DNA of 16,129 nt from a virus. The stretch lies in UHGV virus genome UHGV-0120322; one strand, 5' to 3'. Position 1 is the first letter of the stretch. Every line of letters begins with the position of its first letter. This document shows, piece by piece, positions 9,547-12,006 of the stretch. The position numbers and the translations under genes are program-made. The notes under the pieces are model-generated. The model was not told where the DNA came from. It saw only the letters and a list, made by a program, of their open reading frames with translations, and ran no database searches.

Positions 9547-9930
9547 ATGCGTGATATTCAGATGGTTCTTGAGCGTTGGGGGGCATGGGCGGCTAATAAC
9601 CATGAGGATGTGACCTGGTCGTCCATTGCTGCCGGTTTTAAGGGATTGCTTCCTTCAAAAGTAAAATCCCGTCCGCAATGCTGTGATGATGACGCGATGA
9701 TCGTTTGCGGGTGCATGGCCCGTCTGAAAAAGAACAACAGCGATTTGCACGATTTATTAGTGGATTATTATGTCGGCGGTATGACATTCATGTCACTGGC
9801 AAGTAAGCATCGTTGCTCTGATGGTTATATCGGGAAAAAGTTACAGAAGGCTGAGGGAATAATTGAAGGGATGTTAATGGCATTAGATATCCGGTTAGAG
9901 ATGGATATCGTTGTTAATAACTCTAATTAA
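9547..9930 (+). CDS. quuD: Late-gene antiterminator Q (phage 21/82-type, QuuD-like, 127 aa)
   Basis: Start at [24 protein letters not shown]... with GGAGAAAG SD; Cys-rich centre ([12 protein letters not shown]) typical of Q-family zinc-binding antiterminators. Confidence 0.85.
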
Positions 9931-9956
9931 TACGCCAATTATTTACTAAAAGTTAT

Positions 9957-9981
9957 TAAAAATGGGGCGTTGAAACGCCCC
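9957..9981 (-). terminator. Hairpin GGGGCG-TTGAAA-CGCCCC with U-tract on the minus strand; likely terminator for leftward (nmpC-direction) transcription, protecting Q from antisense read-through
   Basis: Perfect 6-bp GC stem; A-tract on plus strand 5' side equals T-run downstream on minus strand. Confidence 0.45.
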
Positions 9982-10108
9982 CAAAAATAAAGGGTAATAT
10001 ATAACAGAAGGTTTGTATAGTTAGAAGCAAGGTTGTGCTTCTAAAGGAAGTGGCTTGAGGGAGCCACTTATATGTTGGGGAGGCAAAGCCTCCCACAACA
10101 TATCTTTT
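9964..10108 (+). promoter_or_regulatory. Late regulatory region downstream of Q: candidate pR'-type promoter (TTGAAA at 9970, TAATAT at 9995, 19-bp spacer) and three hairpins (10024-10041, 10050-10067, 10070-10103 plus CTTTT), the last a candidate tR'-like terminator
   Basis: Position immediately 3' of Q as in lambdoid phages; stem-loops read directly from sequence; promoter hexamers are weak and spacing is suboptimal. Confidence 0.35.
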
Positions 10109-10118
10109 AGTAATCAAA

Positions 10119-11201
10119 TTAGAACTGGTAAACCATACCTACAGCAACGATATCATCGGTAGCAACGCCAGATGCTTTCGTGAAATCGCTCTTATCAATC
10201 AGGTTGATTTTGTAGTCAACAAAAGTGGACATATTTTTGTTGAAGTAATAGGTTGCACCTACATCAACATATTCAACCAGGTCCTGATCACCCCAAACAC
10301 CCAAGTCTTTTCCTTTAGAATGCAGGTAAGCAACGGATGGACGCAGGCCGAAGTCGAACTGATATTGTGCAACAGCTTCGAAGTTTTGTGCTTTGTTGGC
10401 AATATGGTTATTACCAAAAACAGTCATGTTCTGGGTTTCAGAATAGGTGGTGGCCAGATAGATGTTGTTCGCATCATATTTCAGACCAGCTGCCCATACT
10501 TCAGCATTTTGACCAGAAGCATTCAGACCGTTGTTACCGTAGATAACCTGATTATTAGTGCGATCAGATTTAGCATAGGTTGCACCCACGCCGAATCCTT
10601 CATACTCATAAGTAGTTGAGAAACCGAAACCATCGCCATTAGCTTCAGTTACTTCTTTTCGGTCATTTTTGCCCTGATACTGAGCTGCAAAGTTCAGGCC
10701 ATCAACCAGACCAAAGAAGTCGTTGTTACGATAAGTTGCAACACCTGTGGTGCGACCAGTCATGAATACATCTGTTTGGGTCCAGGTATCGCCACCGAAT
10801 TCTGGCAGAACGTCGGTCCATGCACCAATATCGTATGCTACACCGTAGTTACGGCCATAATCGATGGAGCCGTAGTCACCGAATTTCAGGCCAGCGAAGG
10901 CAAGACGGGTTTTATCTTTGGAGGAACCTTGAGATTCAGCGCGGTTGCCTTTGAATTCATATTCCCACTGACCGAAACCAGTCAGTTGATCGTTGATTTG
11001 GGTTTCACCTTTGAAGCCAAGACGGGCATAAGTAGTATCACCATCATCTGCATCATTAGAGGAGAAGTAGTGCTTAGCATTAACTTTCCCGTACAGATCC
11101 AGCTTGTTACTGTCTTTATTATAAATTTCAGCTGCCTGAGCAGACATCGCCATCAGTACTGATGCAGCTACAGCAGAAATTGCCACTGTTAATTTTTTCA
11201 T
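10119..11201 (-). CDS. nmpC: Outer-membrane porin, OmpC/NmpC (Lc) family, intact (360 aa with signal peptide [23 protein letters not shown])
   Basis: Classic general-porin sequence ending in the C-terminal aromatic residue (...VGMVYQF); encoded antisense between Q and the lysis genes as in DLP12/PA-2. Confidence 0.95.
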
Positions 11202-11790
11202 CGTGAGCCCTTTTTTTTGAACTATTATTAAAAAATGATGTCACTGCGCGATAAATATTCATCTAATCAATGTGATTATTTCAAGATGTAAGTTTTGGTT
11301 TCTCGTTTAATTTGTGAAGTAGATCTCTATTTTTATCTGAACTTTTTTCTATCGAATCCTATTCATGGCTCTTGGCTGAATAAAAATAAATCTATTAGCC
11401 AATTTATATTAATGGCTGTTATTTATGGGGGGTCTATAATTCGATGGTTTAATTTAAATTAACTAAAAATAACGCCGGAAATTATTTATTGGTTATTTGT
11501 TGAGGTTTTCTTATGTATTTGTGGTGGTGTTTTGAACACTCGGTAGCATTCTCATAAATATCATTCAGTGGTTTACGTACGTAAAAAATTGGTTATGCTG
11601 TTAAGAGTGGTTACTTCGTCACACAGCTTAAACCCGCCGTCGAGCTGGTTTTTCCATTTTTTGAGTCTCGATATTAGCTGATAACTCAATACCTGAGTTA
11701 TTCACTGACTCCGAGTCTGTTACGTTTCTGCTTTTTTGCGATACGTTGTATTCCCTCAATTTACACCCGCTTTGTCTGCGAGGTGGGGTT

Positions 11791-12006
11791 ATGAAATCCA
11801 TGGATAAGTTAACAACGGGTGTCGCCTATGGCACCTCAGCAGGTAGTGCCGGTTACTGGTTTTTACAGCTGCTCGATAAAGTCACGCCCTCACAGTGGGC
11901 AGCAATAGGTGTGCTGGGTAGCCTGGTATTTGGCCTGCTGACGTACCTGACAAACCTTTATTTCAAGATTAAAGAAGATAAGCGCAAGGCTGCGAGAGGT
12001 GAATAA
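11791..12006 (+). CDS. essD: Class II holin (phage 21 S-type pinholin, 71 aa) with dual-start motif MKSM
   Basis: [71 protein letters not shown], two TM segments; GAGGTGG SD; the upstream in-frame ATG at 11746 lacks an SD. Confidence 0.9.

Follow-up and report, generated by a model that had tools for sequence, protein, structure and literature searches.

What does a dense cluster of hairpins do in the gap between two converging genes, and which of the two does it serve? The question is raised by UHGV virus genome UHGV-0120322 (16,129 nt, analyzed along its whole length and called the window here), which represents a DLP12-type lambdoid prophage of Escherichia coli. Positions 9931-10118 of the window form the whole spacer between quuD, the gene for the Q antiterminator, and nmpC/lc, a porin gene on the opposite strand. 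The initial annotation of this spacer saw in it the late promoter pR' with its qut site, together with a short, Q-modifiable late leader RNA ending at a tR'-like terminator and with terminators facing transcription from nmpC. We consider it very likely that the cluster is instead the minus-strand 3' untranslated region (3'UTR) of nmpC/lc, that is, the known RNA IpeX with its terminator, and that the late promoter of QuuD lies beyond nmpC. The cluster is in this sense already known: in DLP12/PA-2-type prophages it has been described as IpeX RNA with the porin terminator, and it is carried by about half of complete E. coli genomes. The identity of IpeX and its effect on OmpC and OmpF we take from the literature; the structures, the terminator signature, the linkage to the porin gene, the homology that locates pR', and the complementarity to a porin leader with its specificity come from the present analysis.

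The hairpin cluster as the probable 3'UTR of a phage porin gene

Read along the minus strand from the nmpC stop codon (10119-10121), the spacer presents hairpins 4, 3, and 2, an unpaired A/U-rich stretch of ~40 nt, and then hairpin 1 with a run of five U residues. All four stem-loops lie where the initial annotation had placed them or within 1-3 nt of there, and their folding is stronger than that of shuffled sequence. Taken on the minus strand, hairpin 1 (9964-9971/9974-9981) has 8 bp that are 100% complementary (-13.9 kcal/mol, z -4.4); hairpin 2 (10021-10029/10036-10044) has 9 bp, likewise 100% complementary, and a 6-nt loop (-10.2 kcal/mol, z -6.1); hairpin 3 (10048-10055/10062-10069) has 8 fully complementary (100%) bp and a 6-nt loop (-10.9 kcal/mol, z -5.3); and hairpin 4 (10070-10103) has 15 bp with one bulged base and a GC-rich top (-23.3 kcal/mol, z -6.5). 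On the plus strand hairpin 4 reaches -22.7 kcal/mol and is followed by CTTTTAG (CUUUUU in K-12), so that the imperfect palindrome preceding CTTTT is indeed present. Each hairpin is significant singly (z -4.4 to -6.6), and the fold of the 191-nt spacer as a whole, at -67.7 kcal/mol on the minus strand (shuffles -35.1 +/- 4.0, z -8.2) and -71.6 kcal/mol on the plus strand (z -7.4), was equaled by 0 of 200 shuffles on either strand.

The strand to which these structures belong is indicated by the terminator signature. The terminator scan found GGGGCGTTTCAACGCCCC followed by ATTTTTAATA at hairpin 1 on the minus strand, the sole terminator-like site in the spacer. This element (9955-9981, minus strand) joins the GC stem of hairpin 1 (9964-9981) to A-UUUUU-AAU and has the form of an intrinsic terminator, a GC-rich stem-loop (GGGGCGUUUCAACGCCCC) running directly into a U-run (AUUUUUAAU). 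One part of the initial annotation, the terminator facing nmpC transcription, therefore stands, hairpin 1 with its minus-strand U-tract being the terminator of nmpC and IpeX; the remainder of its reading, in terms of pR', qut, and tR', is not supported.

The recorded position of ipeX agrees with this arrangement. Castillo-Keller, Vuong, and Misra reportedly mapped ipeX in 2006 between the nmpC stop codon and a predicted Rho-independent terminator, and the lc 3'UTR of PA-2 is said to carry the identical sequence, with the lc transcript inhibiting OmpC. The K-12 and PA-2 rows of our alignment are identical across the quuD-nmpC spacer, in agreement with what Castillo-Keller et al. 2006 reportedly found. 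In the window, the region corresponding to ipeX is found at the same location as in K-12 DLP12 and PA-2, between the nmpC stop and a minus-strand terminator; it measures 161-167 nt from the base after the stop to the U-tract; and the spacer is 95.7% identical to that of K-12 MG1655 over 231 nt (9900-10130), with an identical candidate seed (described below), the match to ipeX itself resting on its published location. The same 9900-10130 segment is 100% identical to several complete E. coli genomes. We accordingly place the nmpC/lc 3'UTR, ipeX, at 9952-10118 on the minus strand (~167 nt), with approximate ends, the 5' end being taken as the first base past the nmpC stop and the 3' end as lying in or after the U-tract.

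Published summaries describe ipeX as a 167-nt RNA of the cryptic prophage DLP12 that forms part of a porin transcript from the phage porin promoter, is processed, and controls OmpC (PMC12197685). IpeX is listed as a post-transcriptional repressor of ompC (PMC3617542, PMC3333887, PMC7177473), and ompF is also named as a target (PMC3617542, PMC7177473); in published work the levels of OmpC and OmpF fall if the ipeX sequence is over-expressed or the lc transcript produced. In the window, transcription from the nmpC promoter would thus pass the stop codon, cross hairpins 4, 3, and 2 and the A/U-rich stretch, and end at hairpin 1 with its U5 tract. Hairpins 4, 3, and 2 most likely protect and shape the RNA. 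The UTR, either still joined to the porin mRNA or once processed, would then lower OmpC and OmpF as reported, and therefore the lysogen would exchange its own porins for that of the phage.

Two other sequence features of the cluster deserve mention. A 14-nt inverted repeat (9943-9956/10100-10113, 13/14 complementary) encloses all of the hairpins and closes a multibranch structure in the minimum-energy folds of both strands; one of its arms lies past the terminator U-tract, which would limit pairing to read-through or plus-strand RNA, and K-12 preserves the repeat only in part. We considered this repeat as the signature of a mobile element and set that idea aside, given the arm beyond the terminator and the partial conservation. 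A minus-strand open reading frame (ORF) of 53 codons with a TTG start (9956-10117) runs through the whole cluster and is almost certainly noncoding, its frame being broken by single-base indels in the variants; the short "ORF1" and hypothetical proteins annotated at the cluster in PA-2 and Chlobot are likewise rejected as coding.

Conservation of the cluster with the porin gene

If the cluster belongs to the porin transcript, it should be found where the porin gene is found. A version of the quuD-nmpC spacer is carried by 2503 of 5426 complete E. coli genomes and by 36 phages, always with a porin gene adjoining, and the cluster is flanked by a porin gene in every carrier, both in the 36 phage records and in the 80 IMG/VR loci (98-100% identity) recovered by a search with the porin. 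The only breaks in the linkage of Q to the cluster look, by eye and from their divergent ends, like insertions of IS1 or IS5; a partial match in JB2 is flanked by an IS5-like element. The most informative locus is a prophage remnant in Escherichia albertii NBRC 107761 (L117, 1-3495), in which bor, an nmpC-like porin gene (89% identity), and the cluster are followed by chromosomal ycgN, with a long noncoding gap between bor and the porin gene and with neither Q nor lysis genes. Homology to the window (88.6% over 167 nt) extends from the porin stop codon to just past the U-tract of hairpin 1 and then stops. Judged from its sequence, this remnant is decisive for the module boundary: the unit appears to travel with the porin, not with Q. 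That the cluster has been kept in E. albertii without Q counts against the proposal of a Q-modifiable late leader ending at a tR'-like terminator within it. The remnant also suggests that selection has maintained the porin and its UTR since the decay of the prophage.

The related chromosomal porin genes of Citrobacter, Salmonella, and Enterobacter have a single simple terminator 20-30 nt past the stop codon and no similarity to the cluster, which, as far as these sequences indicate, was not inherited from chromosomal porins.

Variation within the cluster was followed in 30 E. coli and IMG/VR variants (alignment 96% identical) and in E. albertii. The E. albertii changes fall mainly in loops, several of them in the loops of hairpins 2, 3, and 4 (three in that of hairpin 2), and the closing pair of hairpin 4 shows a compensatory replacement of C-G by U-A. 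Beyond that, the only departures from intact stems are one mismatch each in hairpins 1 and 2 and one G-U pair in hairpin 3. Hairpin 4 has lost its bulge in some E. coli variants, and in others an insertion supplies a partner for it or a double change shifts it; substitutions in hairpin 1 are concentrated in the loop and top pair. In hairpin 2, A-U to G-U changes in 6 of 30 variants would be tolerated on the minus-strand RNA only. Hairpin 3 has one or two pairs broken in several variants, with no covariation.

Several observations count against the identification of the cluster as a structured minus-strand RNA equivalent to IpeX. Covariation was not significant, its score being reached by 55 of 500 shuffles for the 30 variants and by 14 of 500 when E. 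albertii was added, because the sequences are too similar. Wobble-type changes give a mixed picture: those in hairpins 2 and 4 favor the minus strand, those in hairpin 3 and at the top of hairpin 1 the plus strand. Searches of Rfam gave no credible family, either at gathering thresholds for the whole window or at E <= 10 for 9850-10200 (best AniS and traJ_5, at E ~1), and no RNA gene is annotated in the spacer in RefSeq or in NC_000913.3, whose records hold no ipeX feature; it is for these reasons that IpeX went unflagged. The strand and ends assigned to the RNA rest on the terminator signature together with the literature.

A candidate seed complementary to the ompC leader

How might such a 3'UTR lower a host porin? 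In the minimum-energy fold of the minus strand, positions 9982-10020 are unpaired, and they contain a single-stranded candidate IpeX seed (9985-10013, minus strand), 5'-AACCUUCUGUUAUAU-AUUAC-CCUUUAUUU-3' as read from 10013 to 9985. This stretch is conserved like the stems: it is nearly invariant in the 30 variants, and E. albertii differs by one transition that would keep a G-U pair. It also contains, on the opposite strand, the TAATAT that the initial annotation had taken for a -10 hexamer.

The candidate seed is complementary to positions -31 to -7 of the ompC leader (5'-AAAUAAAGG-C-AUAUAACAGAGGGUU-3'), which include the Shine-Dalgarno sequence GAGGG. The duplex predicted by RNAduplex has 24 bp, in helices of 15 and 9 bp, and an energy of -26.4 kcal/mol; by the same method the 5' end of MicC binds the ompC leader at an overlapping site with -26.5 kcal/mol, and opening its own structure costs IpeX 1.6 kcal/mol, versus 4.3 for MicC. 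Dinucleotide shuffles of the seed averaged -15.4 +/- 3.0 kcal/mol against ompC, and 1 of 200 was as good. Background values came from 4000 random 141-nt windows of ~80 enterobacterial porin loci; they averaged -11.7 +/- 3.3 kcal/mol, and 0.075% reached -26.4. The eight strongest were all in 5' leaders, immediately before a porin start codon; the stretch is therefore specifically an anti-porin-leader sequence. Its exact matches to the ompC leader do not exceed 9-10 nt, which puts them below the reach of a BLAST-type search with an 11-nt word. The seed gave nothing with the leaders of ompA or of nmpC itself in RNAduplex, and duplex predictions for full-length IpeX were uninformative. For ompF, a duplex of -18.8 kcal/mol (-24 to +9) involves the AUUACCCU segment and GAGGGUAAU.

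We thus find one hallmark of antisense RNAs of the MicC/MicF type, an accessible seed with extended and specific complementarity to the translation-initiation region of ompC. The unstructured stretch would be the active seed and would form two helices, of 15 and 9 bp, with ompC between -31 and -7; with the Shine-Dalgarno sequence covered and the MicC site overlapped, translation would be blocked as by MicC, and pairing with ompF (-24 to +9) would be weaker. We propose MicC-like antisense pairing as the most likely mechanism by which the phage porin transcript silences ompC, a proposal drawn from sequence complementarity that we hold about as strongly as we doubt it. The 24-bp, MicC-equivalent complementarity offers a simple and directly testable mechanism, although its novelty is uncertain, and it may already have been noted or tested.

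The doubt comes from the published view, in which IpeX acts otherwise than through such a seed, by protein titration or another indirect route; the complementarity to ompC would then be vestigial or coincidental. According to one review, IpeX acts without base pairing to the ompC and ompF mRNAs (PMC3617542), which contradicts a seed mechanism, and another holds that its action does not depend solely on complementarity to the ompC mRNA (PMC12197685). Pairing is further disfavored by the ompF duplex, which is no better than chance (17 of 200 shuffles), and by the method, given that RNAduplex disregards kinetics and proteins. On the other side, a coincidental match would have to cover the Shine-Dalgarno sequence with 24 bp, equal the energy of MicC, and be cheaper to open, in a stretch that is nearly invariant and that is matched as well only by porin leaders among 4000 background windows. 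We regard action without the seed as possible, while leaning against it.

Another alternative is a role confined to the 3' end of the porin mRNA: a terminator and stabilizing hairpins for nmpC mRNA that also block rightward transcripts from quuD, with no function in trans. The hairpins are strong on both strands and the terminator faces nmpC, as such a passive architecture would have it, and hairpin 4 with its U4-5 could stop transcripts moving rightward. In K-12, inserting the rrnB terminator in the spacer left IS5 activity unchanged whereas inserting a Ptet promoter changed it (PMC11677980), and the authors of that study concluded that rightward transcription does not cross the spacer, probably owing to intrinsic terminators; this result fits insulation and is no proof of it. 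However, related chromosomal porin genes need only one simple terminator, the unstructured stretch is conserved like the stems and is specifically complementary to ompC-type leaders, and ipeX is reported to lower OmpC and OmpF upon over-expression or lc transcription. We therefore consider it improbable that the cluster is passive and nothing more, though an insulator role may hold alongside a trans-acting one.

The probable late promoter beyond nmpC

On the evidence of homology, the late promoter for QuuD is most likely the plus-strand element at 11572-11599, 1.6 kb further along and beyond nmpC, with a -35 hexamer TTTACG (11572-11577), a 16-nt spacer containing the invariant CGTAAAAA, and a -10 hexamer TATGCT (11594-11599); alignment puts the start site at ~11604-11606. 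The Q proteins point to the phages in which to look for it: QuuD is 79% identical to Q of the Stx phages H-19B and 933W and 85% identical to Q of PhiR55_1, and nt 1-333 of the quuD DNA match the Q genes of Stx and related phages, which make up most of 361 phage records, whereas Q21 itself is only distant kin (PDB 6P18, E 1e-8) despite the assignment of QuuD to the Q21 Pfam family. By blastn, positions 1922-2003 of H-19B (-35 to ~+48) align with 11571-11653 of the window (77% identity, E 5e-12), which is the only sequence in the window homologous to pR' of the phages with the closest Q. In a search with 11540-11800, ~290 Stx phages proved to carry this element overlapping the 3' end of Q, and the aligned segment from -35 to -10 is annotated as "pR' putative late promoter" in OP797663 and KR781488. 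In Stx phages the start of pR' has been mapped by differential RNA sequencing (dRNA-seq) 258 nt upstream of tR' (Sy et al., PMC7547250).

A multiple alignment of these loci shows the following to be invariant: GTTTAC at the -35 position, CGTAAAAA, TAT..T at the -10 position, TAAGAGTGGTTAC, and a terminator of the form AACCCGC...GCGGGTTTTT. The 13-mer TAAGAGTGGTTAC (11602-11614, plus strand) occurs once in the window as an initial-transcribed box and is a candidate for the sigma-dependent pause and Q-loading region. It is exact in 16 of 18 loci, each of these 16 lying downstream of a Q933/QuuD-type Q or within a DLP12-type prophage; phage 21 and Lambda_2E9 lack it. The leader then meets a promoter-proximal terminator (11630-11653, plus strand), which corresponds to the "possible rho-independent terminator" of 933W-type annotation. 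In the window its 3' arm carries a G-to-T change (GAGCTGG vs. GAGCGGG in K-12, Lambda_4C10, and ETEC1703), and it folds with -6.5 kcal/mol (z -0.1) compared with -12.2 in K-12 (z -2.3); the weakened terminator might raise basal read-through to essD-rrrD. Stx-phage pR' leaders, too, have a strong terminator-like hairpin ~25-50 nt past the start (H-19B 1979-2003), yet the work on StxS places tR' at +258.

With pR' beyond nmpC, the porin gene and its UTR become a reverse-oriented insert between Q and pR', outside the path of late transcription; nmpC/lc is a lysogenic-conversion gene placed between the two. The most telling comparison is PhiR55_1, which is organized alike around another reverse-strand gene: its Q is followed by a 148-aa reverse-strand hypothetical gene and then by the same pR' element (L018, 540-1600), and its spacer between Q and the reverse gene looks, by eye, unrelated to 9931-10118. 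In Lambda_2E9 (L007, 2501-3559), a QuuD-like Q is followed by a reverse-strand gene for a Blc lipocalin, and this phage may use a promoter directly after Q. A phage 434B in which Q, the late promoter, and the lysis region were replaced by the K-12 DLP12 segment, including nmpC::IS5, is viable (PMC9119081); its viability implies a working Q-dependent late promoter within the DLP12 segment, and 434B alone leaves undecided on which side of nmpC this lies. Thus, the textbook order of Q and then an immediate pR' fails in this prophage family, in which a reverse-oriented conversion gene with a regulatory 3'UTR stands between them, and neither annotation pipelines nor readers should assume in DLP12-type prophages that pR' abuts Q.

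The reading of the spacer as the late promoter itself can be set against these results. The hexamers on which it relied, TTGAAA (9970-9975) and TAATAT (9995-10000), are present and 19 bp apart; from them a plus-strand leader would pause at TATAGT (10016-10021) and end at hairpin 4 and CUUUU as tR', and QuuD would load in the cluster, antitermination carrying transcription across nmpC, in antisense, to the lysis genes. Several observations speak for it: pR' begins very close to the Q stop in phage 21 and H-19B; conservation extends from TAATAT as far as the downstream TATAGT; on the plus strand, U4-U5 comes after hairpin 4; and Lambda_2E9, whose Q gene has 85% DNA identity over nt 1-360, has a superficially similar TAATGT...TGTTAGAAT directly after Q. 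However, a promoter scan of 9931-10118 found no sigma-70-like site on either strand. The TTGAAA is separated from its partner by a 19-bp spacer and sits in the loop and top of hairpin 1, at the most variable positions (TTGAAG, TTGCAA, TGGAAA, and TGTCAA in relatives). TATAGT might act as a -10-like sigma-dependent pause element, though this carries little weight unless a credible promoter precedes it, and the TG (10014-10015) that precedes it to give the extended -10-like TGTATAGT is private to the window, all relatives having TA. The conserved block is explained by the IpeX seed, and the base of hairpin 4 is A-U rich, atypical of an intrinsic terminator, with no call from the terminator scan. 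That late transcription starts elsewhere, which the initial annotation had named as an outcome that would tell against it, is indicated by homology (11572-11653). With the pR' homolog of the closest-Q relatives at 11572-11653, PhiR55_1 sharing the Q and pR' element and, by eye, not the spacer, and the cluster persisting in E. albertii in the absence of Q, we judge a late promoter in the cluster to be very improbable.

Nor did the comparison that had been suggested with pR'-qut of phages 21 and 82 find a counterpart in the quuD-nmpC spacer. Features of the phage 82 pR' type (an AAA start, an extended -10-like element at +6 to +14, and GCC at +15-17; PMC5001585) do not fit, and QuuD is not of the Q82 type. 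For the phage 21 type of Q-binding element (QBE), the annotated repeat ATTGAGCA/AATGAGCA was not seen after quuD on reading the sequence.

Genes and signals around the spacer

In matching genomes, the annotated neighbors are rusA, ylcG, quuD (Q), the opposite-strand porin gene (nmpC; "ompC" or "porin" in RefSeq), essD, and rrrD. quuD occupies 9547-9930 on the plus strand (Pfam PF06530, the Q21 family, E 6e-54) and is annotated under this name in identical E. coli genomes. The porin gene (10119-11201, minus strand) is intact and encodes 360 aa (Pfam Porin_1, E 3e-152), relatives being annotated as porin, ompC, or OmpD. essD lies at 11791-12006 on the plus strand. A tRNA scan of the window found none. 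Just beyond the nmpC start codon there is a sigma-E-type promoter sequence on the plus strand, GAACTA-16-TCACT (11219-11250). A published DLP12 promoter fragment described as "-121 to +650", whose forward primer falls at 11129-11148, puts +1 at ~11250 (PMC7918800). The lysis genes would then be served, ~350 nt upstream of the Q-type pR', by a second promoter under host control.

Comparison with known systems

The Q region of the window can be compared with the lambdoid Q cassettes of phages 21, 82, lambda, and the Stx phages. Like them, it has a Q gene (quuD), a pR' (the homolog at 11572-11653), a short leader, and a terminator. Unlike them, it has Q and the promoter ~1.64 kb apart, with a reverse-oriented porin gene and its UTR in between; in phage 21 and H-19B the promoter is 0-7 nt from the Q stop or overlaps Q. 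The hairpin cluster at 9931-10118 lies outside this cassette. The kind of RNA that the initial annotation had in mind is exemplified by StxS (Sy et al. 2020), a small RNA (sRNA) derived from the terminated pR' leader of Stx phages, and the first ~50 nt of the StxS precursor are homologous to 11604-11653 of the window, after nmpC, and not to 9931-10118. StxS itself is the 74-nt 3' part of a 258-nt leader in Stx phages, and the DLP12 leader diverges past the proximal terminator.

With IpeX of K-12 DLP12 and of PA-2 the window shares the locus, between the nmpC/lc stop and a Rho-independent terminator and next to quuD, upstream of which the RNA is placed, as well as a DLP12-type prophage host. 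It differs from K-12 in having an intact nmpC, where that of K-12 carries an IS5 insertion, and in a few substitutions (the TG at 10014-10015, the bulge base, and loop bases). The MicC-like pairing with ompC proposed here differs from the published summaries of IpeX.

The closest functional parallel would be MicC. The predicted ompC sites overlap (-30 to -15 for MicC, -31 to -7 for IpeX), the seeds resemble one another (GUUAUAUGCCUUUAUUG in MicC and GUUAUAUAUUACCCUUUAUUU in IpeX; GUUAUAU...CCUUUAUU), and both RNAs are linked to a porin gene other than their target, MicC being encoded next to the porin gene ompN. In contrast, MicC has a gene of its own, carries its seed at the 5' end, and requires Hfq, whereas IpeX is a 3'UTR in which the seed follows three hairpins and comes just before the terminator; the abstract of the 2006 Castillo-Keller paper reportedly states that the effect of IpeX on ompC needs no Hfq. 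If the proposed pairing is true, IpeX would stand as an early case of a host porin regulated by a phage-borne antisense RNA embedded in a 3'UTR.

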